Positions 1,223 to 44,024 of a DNA stretch of 44,680 nt are shown here, in pieces. The stretch is from positions 1-44,680 of the IMG/VR virus record IMGVR_UViG_3300033068_000459; one strand, written 5' to 3'. This DNA comes from a virus. Below the pieces are notes generated by a model that saw nothing but the letters and a program-made list of their open reading frames with translations, was not told the origin of the DNA and made no database searches. Both the position numbers and the translations under genes were made by a program. Each line of letters starts with the position of its first letter. Position 1 is the first letter of the stretch.

Positions 1223-1496
1223 CAAGGTGTTTCGCTCCGGCGACGGATCCGGCTACGGCGACGGATCCGGCGACGGATCCGGCTACGGCTACGGCGACGG
1301 ATCCGGCTACGGCGACGGATCCGGCGACGGATCCGGCTACGGCTACGGATCCGGCTACGGCGACGGATCCGGCTACGGCGACGGATCCGGCGACGGCGAC
1401 GGATCCGGCGACGGATCCGGCTACGGCGACGGATCCGGCTACGGCTACGGCGACGGATCCGGCTACGGCTACGGCGACGGATCCGGCAAAGGATGA
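1215..1496 (+). CDS. Gly/Asp/Ser/Tyr low-complexity repeat protein, (GDGSGY)n
   Basis: The ATG overlaps the upstream stop region and the stop overlaps the next ATG (ATGA), so it appears translationally coupled on both sides. 93 aa, almost entirely GDGSGY/GYGY units. Confidence 0.55.
   Translation: MPNKVFRSGDGSGYGDGSGDGSGYGYGDGSGYGDGSGDGSGYGYGSGYGDGSGYGDGSGDGDGSGDGSGYGDGSGYGYGDGSGYGYGDGSGKG
1239..1487. repeat. Imperfect tandem array of GGCGACGGATCCGGCTAC-type units
   Basis: Read directly. About 14-15 GGATCC (each containing GATC) occur within ~250 bp. Confidence 0.9.
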
Positions 1497-1963
1497 CCAG
1501 AAAACGCACAGTACGTAGGGTATGGCAGAAGGTAAACCCAATCACTCATGCAGTGGCTGGGGCGTCTATCAAGCCAAGGTCGGAGCTTGACAAACTTCTG
1601 ATGCGCGAGCTTTCCGCCTTGGACGACATGACCCATGGAAAAGCCAGCCTGCAACAGTGGCACGACCTGGCGAACGTGGTTAACCTATGCGAAACGCTTG
1701 CGCATGAGAAAGTCGGGGCGGAGGCTTTGGAATCTTGCCGGACGGCGCAAGATGCGCTGATCGAGGCCGCGAAGAGGTTTCAGGAAACGCAGCGGATGGG
1801 CTTGTCAGGCATCGGGATTCAGGCCCTGCGGGATGTGATTTCGTATCACGACCTACAGCGCTCCAGCATCCCTCGAAGCCAGTACGAGGCGGCTATCCGG
1901 CTGACTGCGGCGCGGGTAAAAAGTGGGTACGCTACGGTTGATCTTGGGGAGATGCTCGGTTAA
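1493..1963 (+). CDS. Hypothetical protein with an arginine-rich N-terminus (MTRKRTVRRVWQK); last gene before the ORF-free region
   Basis: ATGA overlap with the upstream gene. 156 aa. No recognised catalytic motif. Its position at the early/late boundary suggests a regulator, but this is inference only. Confidence 0.7.
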   Translation: MTRKRTVRRVWQKVNPITHAVAGASIKPRSELDKLLMRELSALDDMTHGKASLQQWHDLANVVNLCETLAHEKVGAEALESCRTAQDALIEAAKRFQETQRMGLSGIGIQALRDVISYHDLQRSSIPRSQYEAAIRLTAARVKSGYATVDLGEMLG

Positions 1964-2004
1964 AATTTGCCACGGCCTGAGTAGGATACGCCGTCAATCT
2001 GCTC

Positions 2005-2027
2005 TGACACCCCGGAAAGACGGGGAC
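2005..2027 (+). repeat. Hairpin repeat copy 1: TGACACCCCGGAAAGACGGGGAC
   Basis: 5-bp stem CCCCG/CGGGG with loop GAAAGA. Two further copies lie downstream. Confidence 0.9.
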
Positions 2028-2161
2028 GAATTTGAGACTTTGCTGCCGGGCTGGTCACCTACACCGTAAACACAGCATCCCCCGTATGAGTCGGCTAACG
2101 ACGGGGCGTCAGTCACAGGACATAGTCGCGGGCGAGCGCGCCGCAATGGTTGTGTCAGCGT

Positions 2162-2184
2162 TGACACCTCGGAGAGACGGGGAT
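2162..2184 (+). repeat. Hairpin repeat copy 2: TGACACCTCGGAGAGACGGGGAT
   Basis: Same element. The C>T change in the stem keeps pairing as a U-G wobble. The loop GAGAGA remains all purine. Confidence 0.9.
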
Positions 2185-2328
2185 GAACAGAAAAGGCTGG
2201 ATGACTTCATCCTTCAAGACGGCCTCTAAATGTCTACGAAGGGTGTCACTCGACAGGCGACCGGTCCTGGGCGGGCTGTGCAATTGAGCCATATCACAGA
2301 GTGCGAGCTGCATCGGCCAACAGATCAG

Positions 2329-2351
2329 TGACACCCCGGAAAGACGGGGAC
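2329..2351 (+). repeat. Hairpin repeat copy 3: TGACACCCCGGAAAGACGGGGAC
   Basis: Identical to copy 1. Confidence 0.9.
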
Positions 2352-2863
2352 TATCACATAGGCGGCGGCGTGGAAAGCAGACACGCACAAAACCCGAATG
2401 TACGTGACCTCCAGCGCGTTGAGTAGGGATGGAGATAGCTGGGTTAGCGTCCAGCCCGCCTATTTGATGGACCATGAAGACTTCGGATTGCGCTTACTCC
2501 TAGCATCGGTAAGACGATAGGCAGCTACACAGGTGACGAGTTTGGGGTTGCTCCCAAGCGCGTAGCTGGCGCCAAAAAATCCACCCCCTTAAGCAAGGGG
2601 AAGTCCGAAGCATTGATGTGCCATGAAGCCTCAGACCTAAAAGCGTCCGCACCCTTGACGCACGGTATCCAGTCCGCAGAGTAGGGTAGGTCTGAGACTT
2701 GATGGTGAGCATTTCATGCGATTGGTATAAGATGGACACAAGGTTGCCTCAGTGTCCCAAGGGTTCACGGCCAGAATTGGCAACTAAAGACCGTGAGAAG
2801 CGAAAACCCGGAAGGGTCGTGCGAGATTCCTGATAAACGCCGTCTTTCACCATCAACCCATTC

Positions 2864-3301
2864 GCTGTCTTAGCTCAATTGGTAGAGCACCATACTGTAT
2901 AATGTATGTATGCACTACAACACTATGCGATACCGCCGAAGAATGGCGGAAATGAAACGGATTCTTGGCGGTCAATGCGTGGGGTGCGGGTCTGTAGATT
3001 GTTTGGAGATCCACCACAAAGTACCGGCTGATAAGTCCTTCACTCTTTCCCTTGAATTTGATAAGCCATGGAATGAAATTGAGTTAGAGCTTCGCAAATG
3101 TGAGTTGAGGTGCAAGGCTTGTCATAAGCTTGAACATGCTGCGAAGCATGGATTGGGGATGTATTCCCATCACAAGTGCCGATGTGATGTTTGCAAAAAA
3201 GCATGGAGCATTGCAACCAAGAAATACAAGCAAAAGTCCAAAGAAAAACGGCTAGCCCAAAAAATGGGAGGTCCTTGGTTCGATTCCTAGAGGCAGCACC
3301 A
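2864..3301 (+). tRNA. tRNA gene split by a ~370-nt insertion in the anticodon arm (identity not assignable)
   Basis: 5' half 2864-~2896: acceptor GCTGTCT, TA, D-arm GCTC-AATTGGTA-GAGC, A, then CCATA... 3' half ~3263-3301: ATGG-GAGGTC, T-arm CTTGG-TTCGATT-CCTAG (one T-T mismatch), acceptor AGGCAGC (7/7 pairs with the 5' strand, one G-U), discriminator A, and an encoded CCA. Confidence 0.55.
2910..3290 (+). CDS. HNH endonuclease located inside the split tRNA
   Basis: Motifs CVGCGS...EIHHKVP...CKACHKLEH, plus a C-terminal HHKCRCDVCK zinc-type motif. Visibly AT-richer than the flanks (by eye). The last ~9 codons and the TAG stop lie in the tRNA variable loop and T-arm. Confidence 0.85.
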   Translation: MHYNTMRYRRRMAEMKRILGGQCVGCGSVDCLEIHHKVPADKSFTLSLEFDKPWNEIELELRKCELRCKACHKLEHAAKHGLGMYSHHKCRCDVCKKAWSIATKKYKQKSKEKRLAQKMGGPWFDS

Positions 3302-3380
3302 AATACTAAATTCCCCATTGCAATGATGGGAGTTATAATTCCTAATACGTGCGATTAGACCGCACTATTAAGGGGTTCAA

Positions 3381-3536
3381 ATGAGTGATTTGCAAGGTAC
3401 GGCTAGTGATGCGCGGATGAAAATTCAAATCACCCGGGCTGCAACTGGCGCGGTTGAAGATTACGAATTGATCCTAACTCCGCTTCCAATCGTCCAAGAA
3501 ACCGAGGGCGATCAGCCCGAAAAGGATAGCCAATGA
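3381..3536 (+). CDS. Small hypothetical protein (51 aa)
   Basis: AAGGGG lies upstream of the ATG. The stop overlaps the next ATG (ATGA). Below the cutoff of the ORF track; translated by hand. Confidence 0.45.
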   Translation: MSDLQGTASDARMKIQITRAATGAVEDYELILTPLPIVQETEGDQPEKDSQ

Positions 3537-4114
3537 GCCTCGTAACTCACTCCGTCGCCGCGCAAAATGCCGCAACTGATGCCGTCACCGCGCAGATCGG
3601 CGCATCCGGCAACTTGGCCTTTCGATTGGCTGGGACCATTGGGTCTCCCGGCGCAGTGGCTGCTACCTTGGCGCTGTCGGCTACCGCATTCGGTGCTGCA
3701 ACTGGTGGCGTGGCAACTACCAACGCGATCACCACGAACACCAACGTTGTCGGCAATGCCTCCCCAGTGGCTACGGCAACTCTCCAGACTTCGGGCGGTA
3801 CTCCGGTGATTCACTTTGCTGTGGCGGCTTCTGTGACCACGACCATTACGGGATCGTCTGGCGCGGCAACGATCACGGTTGGCTCTGCCACTGGCTTGGC
3901 TAGTGGCATGAATGTGAGCGGCACGGGCATTGCGTCTGGCGCTTCTATTGTCAACATCACCGGCACCACTGTCACGTTGTCTGCGAACAACACGGGCGCA
4001 GTTTCTGGATCTGGCACTTTCGTGGCTGACATGACGGTCACAAACGGCCTGACATTTGCCCCCGGCGATACCGTGAGCTGCTCAAGTCTGACTTATCGTG
4101 CATTGATCGCATAA
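3533..4114 (+). CDS. Ala/Thr/Gly-rich conserved phage protein, function unknown (possibly virion or fibre associated)
   Basis: 193 aa. The N-terminal pattern AQNAATDAVTAQIGASGNLAF...ATAFGAATGG resembles a recurrent phage family that I cannot name. Confidence 0.6.
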   Translation: MSLVTHSVAAQNAATDAVTAQIGASGNLAFRLAGTIGSPGAVAATLALSATAFGAATGGVATTNAITTNTNVVGNASPVATATLQTSGGTPVIHFAVAASVTTTITGSSGAATITVGSATGLASGMNVSGTGIASGASIVNITGTTVTLSANNTGAVSGSGTFVADMTVTNGLTFAPGDTVSCSSLTYRALIA

Positions 4115-4125
4115 AGGGGTAAAGC

Positions 4126-5940
4126 GTGGCAACCCCGACGCTGCTGAGTGTCAGTAACGTCGCGCTTCCTAACACTGCCGACTCAGGAAACGTAAGCGTT
4201 ACCGCCCCGACTGGGGCGAATGCCTGTGTCATCGGCGGGACGTTCTACGTCAGCGATAACAGCGTTGTCACGAGCCTAACGGGCTCTCAGCTAACGACAA
4301 CGACGAACGGCGGTCTGCGCACAGCTACGCCTAGCGGCGGGAACTACATGAGTTCCTATGCCCAGGCATTCCAAGTCACGGCGACCGGGTCACAGACCAT
4401 CCGGCTCCAAAAGACCGGGGGCTACTCCGAAGGGCCAACCTGCCAAATTGCATGGCTGACGGTTGATGATCCAACCGATTTTGTCAGGACGGGCGGCTTT
4501 CTGATTGACAGTCAGAACAGCTCACCGGATACCCTGACAGTCACGCTCAATAGTGCTATTACCGATCTTGTGCTCGGTATGTTTGGCACCGATGGTAGCT
4601 CTGCCGATCCTACTGCCCCGACTGGCACGACCCAACAAGGGACGATGCAGACGACGCAGTTTGACAAGTCGATCACGTTCACTGTCAACAGCCCGGGCGC
4701 ATCCACGACGACGATCACGGCAGGTAGTAGGGCTTTTCCTACACTGTTTGGCATTTCGCTTAAGGCTGGCGGCGGCGGAGCCACAACTCACGCAGCTACT
4801 GGCGCATTGGTCGGCTCCGGCTCTACGGTGTCTGGATCGTCGGCAAGAACTCGGTCGCATGGATCGGGCGGTACGCTTACCGGCCCTGGTTCTGCGATTG
4901 TTGGAAGTTCGCAACACAATGCGCCTCACGCCTCCAGCGCGGTATTGTCCGGCGCTGGAGCATTGGTTTCGGGATCAGCAAGCAGGACTAGGCAGCATGC
5001 CACCTCGGGAATTTTGGTGGGGTCGGGTGCTGCTGTATCGGGATCAGCCAATCGAACGCGTAGCCACGCGGGAGCTGGCGCGCTATCTGGTCTAGGGTCT
5101 TCGATTTCTGGATCTGCCAACAAAACGCGTCAGCACATTGGATCGGGGGCGCTTACGGGCCCCGGCTCGGCTGTTTCTGGGTCCGCAACAAGATCAAAAA
5201 TCCATGCTTCTAGCGGCGTCCTGATCGGTCTCGGTTCGGATATAGATGGAGGCGGAGCTAGAACAAGGCAGCATCCAGCATCCGCCATTCTGATCGGCCC
5301 AGGATCGACGATTCAAGGCGCTGCAAACCGAAGTGCCCCAGGTGTCCATAACGCCACTGGATCGCTTGTCGGCAAGGGTTCGGCGGTTTCAGGAGCTGCT
5401 GCACGGTCGCATATCTTCACCGTCACTGGCGCGCTGATTGGGCCGGGCTCCTACATCAGCGGCGCTGCCTCCCGAACAACGGGGGCCGTATCGCATAACG
5501 CTACGGGTGTTCTTTCTGGGCAGGGATCGGCGGTCGCTGGTACATCGGCCAGAAAGCGCACATTTGCATCATCCGGCACCCTCACAGGACAAGGCGCTAG
5601 GGTTGTCGGGACTTCCGCGAGGAAGCGGACATTTGCAGTTACTGGGGTACTGATCGGTCAAGGCTCTGCTGTTTCGGGGTCTGCTACCCGCTTCCGAGTT
5701 CATGCCGTCTCTGGTGCTTTGGTAGGCCCTGGAGCGTCTATTTCAGGGCTGGCAAGCCGAGTCAATGCGCCTGTTTCCCATGACGCCACGGCCAATCTGA
5801 TCGGTCAGGGATCATTTGTATCTGCGCAAGCCCAACTGAGCGGGTTCACGATTATCATTCAAGATTACAGGATGGTAGTTAAACCGCCACGACGAAACTG
5901 GATTGCCCAGCCGCCGCGCCGCAACTGGACTGCAAGATGA
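4126..5940 (+). CDS. Large repeat protein: N-terminal ~220-aa domain, ~15 tandem 23-residue repeats, duplicated PPRRNW tail
   Basis: GTG start. 604 aa. Repeat consensus is H-x3-G-x-L-x-G-x-G-S-x-V-S-G-S-A-x-R-T-R-x. The C-terminus reads VKPPRRNWIAQPPRRNWTAR. Confidence 0.7.
   Translation: MATPTLLSVSNVALPNTADSGNVSVTAPTGANACVIGGTFYVSDNSVVTSLTGSQLTTTTNGGLRTATPSGGNYMSSYAQAFQVTATGSQTIRLQKTGGYSEGPTCQIAWLTVDDPTDFVRTGGFLIDSQNSSPDTLTVTLNSAITDLVLGMFGTDGSSADPTAPTGTTQQGTMQTTQFDKSITFTVNSPGASTTTITAGSRAFPTLFGISLKAGGGGATTHAATGALVGSGSTVSGSSARTRSHGSGGTLTGPGSAIVGSSQHNAPHASSAVLSGAGALVSGSASRTRQHATSGILVGSGAAVSGSANRTRSHAGAGALSGLGSSISGSANKTRQHIGSGALTGPGSAVSGSATRSKIHASSGVLIGLGSDIDGGGARTRQHPASAILIGPGSTIQGAANRSAPGVHNATGSLVGKGSAVSGAAARSHIFTVTGALIGPGSYISGAASRTTGAVSHNATGVLSGQGSAVAGTSARKRTFASSGTLTGQGARVVGTSARKRTFAVTGVLIGQGSAVSGSATRFRVHAVSGALVGPGASISGLASRVNAPVSHDATANLIGQGSFVSAQAQLSGFTIIIQDYRMVVKPPRRNWIAQPPRRNWTAR
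4788..5838. repeat. Degenerate ~69-nt coding tandem repeats (~15 units)
   Basis: The periodicity is read from the translated protein. The DNA copies have diverged. Confidence 0.8.
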
Positions 5941-6951: not shown

Positions 6952-7352
6952 CCCCAGCAAACCAAGAGTTCACCCATAAGCCCGAAGAGGGTCAGTACGG
7001 CGACTGCCAGAGGGCAGTAATCGCATCCTTGCTCGACTTGCCGATTTCGGATGTCCCGCACTTTCTAGCGGTGTCGAAAAACGATGCGACGATCTATTGG
7101 GAATCTGTGCAGGCTTTCTGCCGCTCGCATGGCTACGTATATCTGACAGTAGCTAAAAATTCTGGCTCAGCGTTCTTTGGGGACGATGGGCCTGTCTATC
7201 ACGAAATCAGCGGGCCTTCGCCTCGCGGTGGCGGGGTAACCCATGCTGTTGTCGGATGTAATGGGGAAGTGGTGTTTGATCCGCATCCATCCCGCGCAGG
7301 CTTGGCCGGTGACCCTATGGAATGGCAACATGCCTATTTGGTGAAGGCTTGA
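6948..7352 (+). CDS. Small predicted papain-fold Cys-His(-Asp) hydrolase
   Basis: ATGA overlap with the upstream gene. GDC(20)QRAVIASLL followed by VTH(99)AVVG..GEVVFD(111)PHP resembles the C39-like / NlpC-P60-like catalytic arrangement. Confidence 0.5.
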   Translation: MTPANQEFTHKPEEGQYGDCQRAVIASLLDLPISDVPHFLAVSKNDATIYWESVQAFCRSHGYVYLTVAKNSGSAFFGDDGPVYHEISGPSPRGGGVTHAVVGCNGEVVFDPHPSRAGLAGDPMEWQHAYLVKA

Positions 7353-7354
7353 GC

Positions 7355-7966
7355 ATGAACGCGGACCAGAAATTTCTCTTTGACCAGCTAACCCAGCTAC
7401 AACAGCGAGTAGCCACTAACGTGCTGGCTGGGATGACTCAGCGAGCCGCCTATCGACTTGCCGGGGGTCAGGCCGAAACGGACGAGGGGGCGGATTCTTC
7501 TTGCTCAGAAATCTTGAGCAATCCCAAGGTGTCCGCCTTTATGGATGCAATGAAGGAAGAGGCCGTTTCCGAGGCCATCATGAGCCGTAAAGAGGCCATG
7601 GAGAAGCTTTCTTTGCTCGCCCGCACTGACCTGAAGGACTTAGTAGATTTCGGCTCCTATGAGCTAGGAATTGATGAAGAGTCGGGGAATCCGATCATTC
7701 AGGCCGCATGGAAAATCAAGCCGCAAGCGCTTCAAGACCCGAAGCAGATGGCGGCCATCTCCGAGCTGACCGCTGGGAAGGATGGGATCAAGATCAAGAC
7801 TCATAGCCAATTGGACGCCATCAAGCAACTGGCGAAGATGCAAGGGTGGGAGTCGGCTCAGAAGATTGATCTATCGAGCAAAGATGGAACCATGAGCCCC
7901 AAGGGCCGAGTATTGGACGATTTCTACAGCAAGCCGGATGTACCAACTCAATCCGATCCTTCGTGA
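7355..7966 (+). CDS. terS: Terminase small subunit
   Basis: N-terminal HTH-type motif ...MTQRAAYRLAGGQAETDEGADSSCSEILSNPKV... is typical of Terminase_2-type TerS. It lies directly upstream of TerL. Confidence 0.8.
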   Translation: MNADQKFLFDQLTQLQQRVATNVLAGMTQRAAYRLAGGQAETDEGADSSCSEILSNPKVSAFMDAMKEEAVSEAIMSRKEAMEKLSLLARTDLKDLVDFGSYELGIDEESGNPIIQAAWKIKPQALQDPKQMAAISELTAGKDGIKIKTHSQLDAIKQLAKMQGWESAQKIDLSSKDGTMSPKGRVLDDFYSKPDVPTQSDPS

Positions 7967-40300: not shown

Positions 40301-40656
40301 GGGATCACCTTTCTTTCCATTCGTCTATTGGCTTCCACGGTCCGCCATACTTCAATCTTTGCTTGAGCGCCGACAATCAGCCATCTCAACCGCTCTTCTT
40401 CCTCAACCGCAGCGCGCAAGCCTTTGAGTAGAGCCTGATATTCGGTGTCAGCGTAGGCGTCTCGTTCTTGCGCACCGATAGCAGATGTACCAGAAACCTC
40501 GGCGGCTTTCATGCAAAGCGCTTTCTTGCTTTTGCGGTACTCCTCAATATAAATTCTTTCAGCTTTGGCTTTGGCGTAAACCGCAGCGTTATCGCGAATA
40601 AAATCGAGAGCCCGAAACACATTAAATTCGGCATCTTGATTCATAGCCAAGCCCAT
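40297..40656 (-). CDS. Hypothetical protein (119 aa)
   Basis: Part of the operon chain; helical. Confidence 0.55.
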   Translation of the reverse strand: MGLAMNQDAEFNVFRALDFIRDNAAVYAKAKAERIYIEEYRKSKKALCMKAAEVSGTSAIGAQERDAYADTEYQALLKGLRAAVEEEERLRWLIVGAQAKIEVWRTVEANRRMERKVIP

Positions 40657-41165
40657 GTAACTCGTTTTGCAATAGCGTAGGCATACGAATAAACAATGCC
40701 ATGCTTCCGGCCTGCATCGGCCACCTTCATTCCAGAATCAAAATCAGCGCGAAAAGCTAAAATTTTTTCCTTGCTGTACTTATTTGTTCTGCATCGCTCG
40801 CCGCGAATGCTTGTACCGTGATGGACGGTGTCGGACATGTTCCCTCGACGGGTGTCAATGCGAAGGTTTTGCCAACAATTATTTTTCTTGTTCCCATCGT
40901 TGTGACAAACGTCCATTCCTTCTGGAATCAAGGAAATAAAAGCAGATGCAACAAGCCGATGAACAGTGCAATCCTTTTTTTTGGAATTTCGGCAAAGGCT
41001 GACAATCATGTAACCGCTATTGTTGCTGCGCTGACTTAATACCTTGAACGGAGTTGCTCCAAAGGCAGGCGCAACACGCATTACCCGTCCAAGACTAGAA
41101 ACGTGGTATTCCGGCCATGCTGGTATCTCACGCCACTCTTCTTGATGAAATTCAAAAGCGCTCAC
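40641..41165 (-). CDS. HNH homing endonuclease (NUMOD4 + HNH_3-like)
   Basis: EEWREIPAWPEYHVSSLGRV (NUMOD4-like), then TVHRLVASAF...VCHNDGNKKNN. AT-rich relative to its neighbours (by eye). Confidence 0.8.
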   Translation of the reverse strand: MSAFEFHQEEWREIPAWPEYHVSSLGRVMRVAPAFGATPFKVLSQRSNNSGYMIVSLCRNSKKKDCTVHRLVASAFISLIPEGMDVCHNDGNKKNNCWQNLRIDTRRGNMSDTVHHGTSIRGERCRTNKYSKEKILAFRADFDSGMKVADAGRKHGIVYSYAYAIAKRVTWAWL

Positions 41166-43150: not shown

Positions 43151-43329
43151 CCATGCAAACCACATACCTTCTGCTAAAAATCGAGCACTCCGCTCCTATT
43201 CCAGACCTAACCGACAAGGTAGCAGGCCGCGCATACACGATGGACAAGATCGAGGATGTGACGGCCGCGATCATCACTCCAGAAGCGGCGCATAGTCTTG
43301 AAATGGATTCCAAGGTGGATGTGAAATGA
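43147..43329 (+). CDS. Hypothetical protein (60 aa)
   Basis: ATGA overlaps on both sides. Confidence 0.5.
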   Translation: MTMQTTYLLLKIEHSAPIPDLTDKVAGRAYTMDKIEDVTAAIITPEAAHSLEMDSKVDVK

Positions 43330-44024
43330 GCAAGATTTACCACACCAGAGAATCCATTCTTTCCCGTCTAGAGAAAGGACCCGCTCAGTTTGCTGAGTGG
43401 GCGACAAGTCGAAATGCAAACCACGGCTCACGTGTGCAAGCCAGAAAGATAGTGGATGATCTTGTGCTTGATGGTTTGATTCGATTTGTTCACATTGGTC
43501 GATTCCCTTACTACATCCTTGGTACGCCGGAGGCACTGCGCCATGCCGAGCTGATGCAGATCGAAGAATCCAGCAAGGAAAGCCCTTGCGGTTGCATTCT
43601 TTGGACTGGGTTTATCAACAAGAACACGGGTCCGATGATTCGACCGGTTGCAGCAGATGCGCCAAAGTCTGTGCGTCGAACTGTGTGGCAAATGAATCGC
43701 GGTCCGCTTGGAGCAAATGACATCATCCGCATGAGTTGCCGAGACGATGCCTGCATATGCCTGGATCACATGGTAAAGACCCGAAGAAACACGCACCAGA
43801 AGGGAAGGCCAAAGAGCTACGTTACCCGCGTTCGCATCACCGAGGCTATCCGAAAACGCAGGAAGCTGACCATCGAGCAGGCCAACGAAATCCGCATAAG
43901 CCCTGAGAAGAATAGAGTGCTTGCGGAGAAGTATGGAGTTTCGCACTCAAACATAAGCGCTATCCGCCGAGGCCGCACGCTGAGAGACATGACGCCATCG
44001 CCTTTTGCCGGTCTGATGGGCTAG
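43326..44024 (+). CDS. DNA-binding protein: wHTH-like N-terminus, degenerate HNH_3-like core, C-terminal HTH
   Basis: CGCILWTGFINKNTGPMIR...RRTVWQMNRGPLG...MSCRDDACICLDHM resembles the phage HNH_3/AP2-type scaffold. The C-terminus LTIEQANEIR...AEKYGVSHSNISAIRRGRT is HTH-like. Confidence 0.55.
   Translation: MSKIYHTRESILSRLEKGPAQFAEWATSRNANHGSRVQARKIVDDLVLDGLIRFVHIGRFPYYILGTPEALRHAELMQIEESSKESPCGCILWTGFINKNTGPMIRPVAADAPKSVRRTVWQMNRGPLGANDIIRMSCRDDACICLDHMVKTRRNTHQKGRPKSYVTRVRITEAIRKRRKLTIEQANEIRISPEKNRVLAEKYGVSHSNISAIRRGRTLRDMTPSPFAGLMG

Follow-up and report, generated by a model that had tools for sequence, protein, structure and literature searches.

A short RNA hairpin present in three copies in an untranslated region of a viral genome belongs to a widespread phage family and may mark borders between RNA units

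Introduction

The nut site of phage lambda consists of boxA followed by the boxB hairpin, which is bound by the arginine-rich motif of the N protein. The put element of phage HK022 is an antiterminator made of RNA only that acts on the host RNA polymerase. In phage T7, hairpins recognised by RNase III punctuate the polycistronic transcript and leave protective hairpins at the 3' ends. Theta ribozymes, reportedly minimal HDV-like ribozymes, are said to lie beside phage tRNAs. The REP elements, which go with the RAYT transposases, are host chromosomal sequences that occur in hundreds of copies and in both orientations.

The DNA analysed here (the window) is a viral record of 44,680 bp that is complete and has direct terminal repeats. 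It carries three copies of a short hairpin in a stretch with no credible open reading frame, here called the RNA island. The hairpin shares with lambda-type nut sites a 5-bp G/C-rich stem, a purine-rich loop, which may be GNRA-like, and an apparent action at the level of the transcript, and some temperate phages carry it in leaders that follow cro/cI-like genes. However, it has a hexaloop where boxB has a pentaloop, a 5' UGACA and a 3' A in place of boxA, and no N-like partner; one RNA island holds several copies of it, tRNAs and ribosome-binding sites lie right beside it, and it is found across many phyla rather than in one lambdoid group. Since neither boxA nor a co-inherited N-like protein was found, the hairpin is not a nut site in the family sense.

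Functionally, the closest system may be the transcript-punctuating processing hairpins of T7, by analogy: both are conserved hairpins between genes, and in T7 the reader is a host nuclease. The T7 sites, however, are about 50 nt long, have an internal loop and are confined to T7 relatives, and the hairpin described here is far too short for RNase III. As with put, it is a phage cis-acting RNA that would need no phage protein and could address a universal host enzyme, but put is a two-hairpin element of about 70 nt, is known from HK022-like phages only and shows no sequence likeness. As with theta ribozymes, it is a small conserved RNA at the borders of phage tRNAs with an implied role in processing. 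Theta ribozymes, in contrast, lie 3' of the tRNAs and form a double pseudoknot, whereas this is a plain 22-nt hairpin 5' of the tRNAs, and no Rfam ribozyme model matched it at E-values up to 10. Finally, REP elements resemble it in that a short conserved 5' flank precedes a covarying stem, but their stems are longer and their loops are not conserved.

Three copies of the hairpin in the window

A degenerate 23-mer had exactly three matches in the whole window, at 2005, 2162 and 2329, all on the + strand, and no match in any of 100 shuffled sequences, even when three mismatches were allowed; zero copies are expected by chance. The first-pass annotation of this DNA had placed the copies at 2005..2027, 2162..2184 and 2329..2351, with spacings of 157 and 167 nt, and these positions are exact. 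When a covariance model, built from 47 copies from other contigs together with the three window copies, was run with filters off over all 44,680 bases, only the same three copies were returned, at 38-46 bits (40.9, 38.4 and 45.7 bits for copies 1, 2 and 3, respectively), and the next match scored 10.5 bits.

Every copy consists of a 5-bp stem and a 6-nt, all-purine loop, as the annotation had described. In copy 1, positions 2010-2014 pair with 2021-2025 and enclose the loop at 2015-2020, with a predicted folding energy of -10.5 kcal/mol (z -3.6). The fold of copy 2 is predicted at -7.5 kcal/mol (z -2.5). The two substitutions of copy 2 give one U-G pair and a G at loop position 3, so that both the pairing and the purine character of the loop are retained. 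Copy 3 forms the 3' element of a conserved RNA segment, unit B, described below.

Two other features that had been noted around these copies are also present: boxA-like letters 5' of copy 1 and a perfect -35-like hexamer, TTGACA, within copy 2. The former are found at copy 1 only among the window copies, and boxA is not conserved in the family, each of the 14 upstream positions holding less than 0.2 bit across 116 distinct copies. As for the latter, a sigma-70 promoter is not supported as an explanation for the hairpin. No T is enriched 5' of UGACA and there is no -10 consensus downstream, where the A at the second and the T at the sixth position of a -10 element reach 15-36% only; moreover, a role as promoter spacer would leave the covariation of the stem unexplained.

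A widespread family of phage hairpins

The repeats of the window are genuine copies of a cosmopolitan phage RNA hairpin. The motif consists of UGACA, a covarying 5-bp stem with a closing G-C pair, the loop GARAGA and a 3' A, and all three window copies fit it. The conserved stretch is short, comprising these elements (the 3' A at 93%) and then about four G-poor bases. The loop is purine-rich, of 6 nt and rarely 7, and its first G and last A are invariant. The hairpin occurs in at least 194 unrelated IMG/VR contigs; the exact 22-mer was found in at least 118 contigs, and a stem variant at 77 further loci. Outside IMG/VR, the exact 22-mer turned up in 50 species genomes that represent more than 12 phyla of bacteria, among them Burkholderiales, Bacteroidales, Eubacteriales, a Mycobacterium bin, cyanobacteria, Treponema, Planctomycetota, Chloroflexota and candidate-phyla bacteria. 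Its flanks are unrelated between carriers, and each genome holds 1-5 hairpins, not hundreds.

Because phage sequences normally diverge beyond recognition, a 22-base element that stays nearly letter-for-letter the same across phyla is unusual. The hosts of the carriers span proteobacteria, Bacteroidota, Firmicutes, actinobacteria, cyanobacteria, spirochaetes and candidate phyla, and such constancy suggests a conserved target, probably in the host.

Two of the genome matches fall in spacers of CRISPR arrays, one with 18 and the other with 66 repeats. That the motif lies within spacers indicates that the hairpin belongs to invaders, and that hosts take up spacers from a conserved phage element. 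The spacers are situated near position 3291 of one bacterial genome contig (L257) and near position 5444 of another (L260).

The stem covaries. Loci had been fetched with fixed-stem patterns, so that counts are biased toward the fetched stems; among 16 extra matches to the flanks and loop, which had not been used for fetching, 12 formed all five stem pairs, with seven different stems. In a 50-row alignment, 33 double-change cells were counted against 7.5 in shuffled alignments, and the closing G-C pair was invariant. An A as the third base of the 3' stem faces U in 77 of 77 cases and never C, and a G at this place pairs with C (93) or U (35). Thus U-G is frequent and C-A is absent, which indicates that pairing in the stem is selected on the sense strand only. 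The suggestion in the first-pass annotation that selection acts on the pairing of an RNA hairpin is thereby borne out. Pairing on the sense strand only fits an RNA or, less likely, single-stranded DNA of the same strand.

Searches for a described counterpart were negative. At the gathering score no Rfam family matched in the window, and at E-values up to 10 no relevant match was obtained on 1400-3400 or 1990-2365, with ribozymes, GOLLD, ROOL and tRNA-like families included. Literature searches for the motif and for hairpins beside phage tRNAs returned nothing relevant, and the matches to the loop decamer were unrelated primers. The loop and its closing pair presumably resemble nine letters of the peptidyl-transferase region of 23S rRNA. 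Two possible extensions of the fold were considered and dropped. A pseudoknot between the loop and the 3' flank was weakly enriched (29 of 164), and a longer stem, in which the 5' UGA would pair with a downstream UCA, fits only a subfamily of 14%. Escherichia coli was set aside as a model host, as the motif occurs in 1 of 5,426 E. coli genomes.

Position of the hairpin relative to tRNAs and genes

Wherever a tRNA adjoins the hairpin, the two share a strand and the tRNA begins 1-7 nt downstream. A ribosome-binding site with its start codon is found 17-28 nt past the hairpin at many loci, and the nearest large downstream ORF was on the same strand in 75 cases and on the opposite strand in 27, by crude ORF calls. 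The hairpin also behaves as a mosaic joint: 25 pairs of lineages share only the 150 nt upstream of it and 23 share only the 150 nt downstream. Copy 3 follows unit B in seven contigs, and the sequence downstream varies. A run of T follows the hairpin in 12 of 130 copies, and terminator-like sites on the same strand within 600 nt numbered 38 downstream and 19 upstream.

Cultured phages with the hairpin include Xanthomonas phages FoX2 and FoX5 (at about 22.2 kb), Stenotrophomonas phage BUCT709 (at about 10.4 kb) and phage Pokken (at about 17.95 kb). In FoX2 the hairpin is within an ORF-free region of 0.8 kb with a tRNA at its end. BUCT709 and the one E. coli prophage with the motif carry it in an ORF-free leader directly after cro/cI-like genes, and these leaders look like stable-RNA cassettes that head early operons. 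Their extent is about 0.7-1 kb (about 2356-3039 in the BUCT709 contig, L264, and 3054-4085 in the E. coli prophage contig, L267).

The RNA island and its units

The hairpins of the window lie in the RNA island at 1964-2863, a stretch of about 900 nt that ends at a tRNA-like gene. Genes run on the + strand from about 42 kb through the terminal repeat to 1963, the last being ORF156 (1493..1963), and those upstream include genes for a Sak4-like annealing protein, endonucleases, a DUF6948 protein and a Gly/Tyr/Asp/Ser repeat protein. The island is followed by virion-type genes and genes of unknown function, and then by the genes for the small terminase (7322-7966), the large terminase and the portal. 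A sigma-70-like promoter match (9/12) at 1938..1966 on the + strand overlaps the stop codon of ORF156. This is a weak candidate for the start of a transcript of the island, as two such sites were found against 2.5 expected in shuffled sequences.

Between copies 1 and 2 lies unit A (2028..2161, + strand), an ORF-free spacer for which no relative was found and whose stability is not above that of shuffled sequences (z +1.45). Between copies 2 and 3 lies unit B (2185..2328, + strand), a conserved RNA of about 140 nt, which 1-nt indels in its most conserved part show to be non-coding. Its predicted fold has a hairpin formed by 2209-2215 with 2238-2244, enclosing 2218-2221 paired with 2231-2234, and, at the start of the unit, a pseudoknot of 2194-2197 with 2222-2225. 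The pseudoknot helix is fully paired in 11 sequences, with compensatory changes at two of its four pairs. Together with copy 3, unit B was found at 76-90% identity in six contigs (L008, L009, L011, L014, L035 and L122), and its carriers, which are phages of very different kinds, also include L007, L010, L012 and L013. N4-like phages of Xanthomonas and Stenotrophomonas have a 53-nt core of unit B in unannotated gaps of their tRNA arrays, and Rfam gave no match to the unit. Copy 3 follows unit B in all close relatives, with an altered stem in L008 and L014. Copy 2 is 9 nt 5' of the pseudoknot, a position occupied by a tRNA or by other sequence in the other carriers of unit B.

Downstream of copy 3, the ORF-free sequence at 2352..2863 on the + strand forms one or more further units, here called unit C. 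Its first 90 nt or so are common to one other contig (L130), and L008 and L224 have its opening downstream of hairpins. Within unit C, the 29 nt at 2461-2489 are 97% identical to positions 4129-4157 of L133, which lie within a 500-nt gap after the homologue of ORF156; L133, the closest relative fetched, is otherwise without an RNA island and hairpins. Apart from such short pieces of unit C, no relatives of units A and C were detected. Thermodynamic support for units A, B and C was not found (z from -0.3 to +1.5), and the stability of the whole island is ordinary (z -0.8).

The island ends at a tRNA-Tyr(GTA)-like gene with an encoded CCA end (2864..3301, + strand), which is split by a 345-nt insert at 2899-3243. 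The gene has a long variable arm and a poor anticodon stem; ARAGORN found no tRNA in the window at default settings and recovered this gene at a relaxed threshold only. The insert overlaps an ORF for an HNH endonuclease (2910-3290), the stop codon of which is in the T-stem. The gene could carry an intron-like homing insertion, or it could be a disabled tRNA. Three separate genes for HNH-type endonucleases were seen in the window, at 40641-41165 (- strand), at 43326-44024 (+ strand) and at 2910-3290 (+ strand).

A possible role at RNA unit borders

An RNA-level boundary signal best fits a hairpin that is placed at the starts of units, recurs within an island and pairs on the sense strand. We tentatively favour, at a little under an even chance, the view that the hairpin functions in processing or stability and is read by a conserved host factor. 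The untranslated stretch of 0.9 kb after ORF156 would be transcribed into the tRNA-like gene as part of one transcript, and the hairpins would divide it into a short leader, unit A, the pseudoknotted unit B and unit C. Each hairpin would thus mark a border between RNA units that fold, or are used, separately. Possibly, an endonuclease cleaves at the start of the next unit, RNase P doing so at tRNAs, and the upstream piece is then capped and protected at its 3' end by the hairpin, to which a short tail of a few bases stays attached. In gene leaders the hairpin may instead cap the 5' end of the message. Cleavage and end capping at the hairpin are roles that we propose from the sequence. For end protection a generic hairpin would suffice, and the invariant loop and flanks therefore imply a specific reader; that the same letters are found across many phyla makes a conserved host component the likely one. 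This reader would have to be strongly conserved itself, and a host factor is most likely. A broader proposal is that tailed phages use the hairpin as a universal cis-signal, which a component common to all bacteria such as RNase P, RNA polymerase or the ribosome would read. We consider this possible, though on balance doubtful. Against a boundary signal, the stability of units A and C does not exceed that of shuffled sequence, and the strand asymmetry would fit a hairpin in single-stranded DNA too.

An unlikely alternative in our estimation, although it has several points in its favour, is processive antitermination of the nut or put kind. The hairpin would modify the host RNA polymerase, directly or through Nus-type factors or a phage protein, and so allow transcription to cross long untranslated, Rho-sensitive islands and terminators into the downstream genes. 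The boxB-like shape is in line with this, as is the ORF-free leader after the cro/cI-like genes in the two annotated temperate phages, which is the position of a nut site; in the window, too, the hairpins stand between the last middle gene and the late genes. The excess of same-strand terminator-like sites downstream also points this way, and a polymerase target would fit conservation across phyla. A loading site, however, would not be expected as three copies in 350 nt, nor at tight spacing to tRNAs and ribosome-binding sites; boxA is not conserved, no partner protein is known, and terminators would end RNA islands anyway. That the hairpins are themselves weak intrinsic terminators or attenuators seems very improbable. 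The minority of copies with a T-run would agree with such a function, but the run is missing from the three window copies and from about 90% of all copies, the 5-bp stem is short for a terminator, and a conserved loop and 5' flank are not features of terminators.

The mosaic arrangement, in which either side of the hairpin can be exchanged, raises the possibility of a DNA-level element. A hairpin in single-stranded DNA would serve as a joint for swapping cassettes such as tRNAs, RNA modules and small genes, either as the site of a recombinase or as a shared stretch for relaxed homologous recombination. A conserved 5' flank next to a hairpin recalls REP elements and the ends of IS200/IS605 elements, and the strand asymmetry is compatible with DNA, since G-T is tolerated in DNA hairpins. 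Nevertheless, we regard this reading as having only a slim chance. No recombinase or transposase co-occurs in the flanks inspected, the orientation of the hairpin always matches that of tRNAs and mostly that of downstream genes, there are a few copies per genome rather than the hundreds of REP, and both the conservation of the purine loop across phyla and the fixed distance to the starts of RNA units point to the transcript. It seems similarly improbable that the hairpins are structural pegs of one large RNA spanning 1964-2863, with loops engaged in tertiary or inter-molecular contacts of the kind seen in large ornate RNAs. The absence of ORFs and the pseudoknotted unit would suit such an RNA, and so would the position beside a tRNA-like gene, which is shared by GOLLD and ROOL RNAs. 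The hairpin, however, stands alone before ordinary tRNAs and protein genes in hundreds of contexts, the region is not unusually stable, and its units recombine independently, with unit B alone conserved elsewhere. The fallback offered in the first-pass annotation, that the hairpins are repeated modules of a non-coding RNA, came close. The hairpin itself and its placement at the borders of units stand.

The hairpin provides a handle on the ORF-free RNA islands of phages, and in particular on the cutting and stability of their tRNAs, tRNA look-alikes and structured RNAs. If the proposal of a universal cis-signal is true, the same 22 letters punctuate untranslated RNA operons and gene leaders in more than a dozen phyla and define a new class of viral RNA elements with a single host target. 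Identification of the reader would make the hairpin a portable tag for processing or insulation, a marker for the annotation of phage non-coding RNA and a marker of the exchange of modules between phages.

ORF156 and the hairpin

ORF156 (1493..1963, + strand; phrog_20828) codes for a conserved phage protein of 156 residues and unknown function. It was correctly described in the first-pass annotation as basic at its N-terminus and as ending 41 nt 5' of copy 1, and it was there put forward as a possible N-like partner of the hairpins, which it would bind through its arginine-rich N-terminus. The gene is directly upstream of the hairpins. Its family numbers at least 129 proteins, none of them with a functional name or a Pfam domain, and the basic N-terminus is conserved among them (K4, R8 and W11 at 90% or more). 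In the structural model this segment is disordered and is followed by a helical bundle.

The distribution of the two elements argues strongly against such a pair. We retrieved 80 viral loci with an ORF156 homologue by an alignment-based scan, a single-sequence search having returned none, and a hairpin was present within 3.5 kb of the homologue at two of them. Among 35 whole viral records that keep ORF156, 16 of which are at least 90% complete, the strict hairpin pattern was found in none. Conversely, two of 42 hairpin-bearing records had a relative of ORF156, and one of 31 among those at least 90% complete. Co-occurrence is therefore lacking in either direction, and the absence of the hairpin from relatives that keep ORF156, as in these 35 records, is just what the first-pass annotation had said would refute the pair. 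In addition, the next ORF overlaps the stop codon of the ORF156 homologue by 4 nt in most relatives, which thus have no leader after this gene. That the basic N-terminus is retained in phages without the hairpin implies that it must serve something else.

ORF156 also shows no similarity to any antiterminator family. The protein had no match in Pfam or by Foldseek, matched designed TPR proteins only when compared with the PDB by sequence, matched generic helical bundles only with VIA-align (best Z 8.9) and hypothetical viral clusters only in the Atlas. Of the readings considered here, an N/nut-type pair is the one to which we give the smallest chance. We conclude that the hairpin is independent of ORF156, which removes a false lead, namely that of ORF 1493-1963 as an N-like protein for the hairpins.

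The closest relatives of ORF156 are 96% identical and come from Logan and ENA contigs. Its homologues usually lie directly upstream of genes for HNH endonucleases or for the small and large terminases, and a role for the protein in packaging or in late gene expression is a candidate worth testing. Upstream of ORF156, two in-frame repeats were seen in the window: a tandem repeat of seven residues at 1-215, at the start of ORF 3-443, and the Gly/Tyr/Asp/Ser repeat at 1240-1490, which makes up nearly all of ORF 1215-1496.
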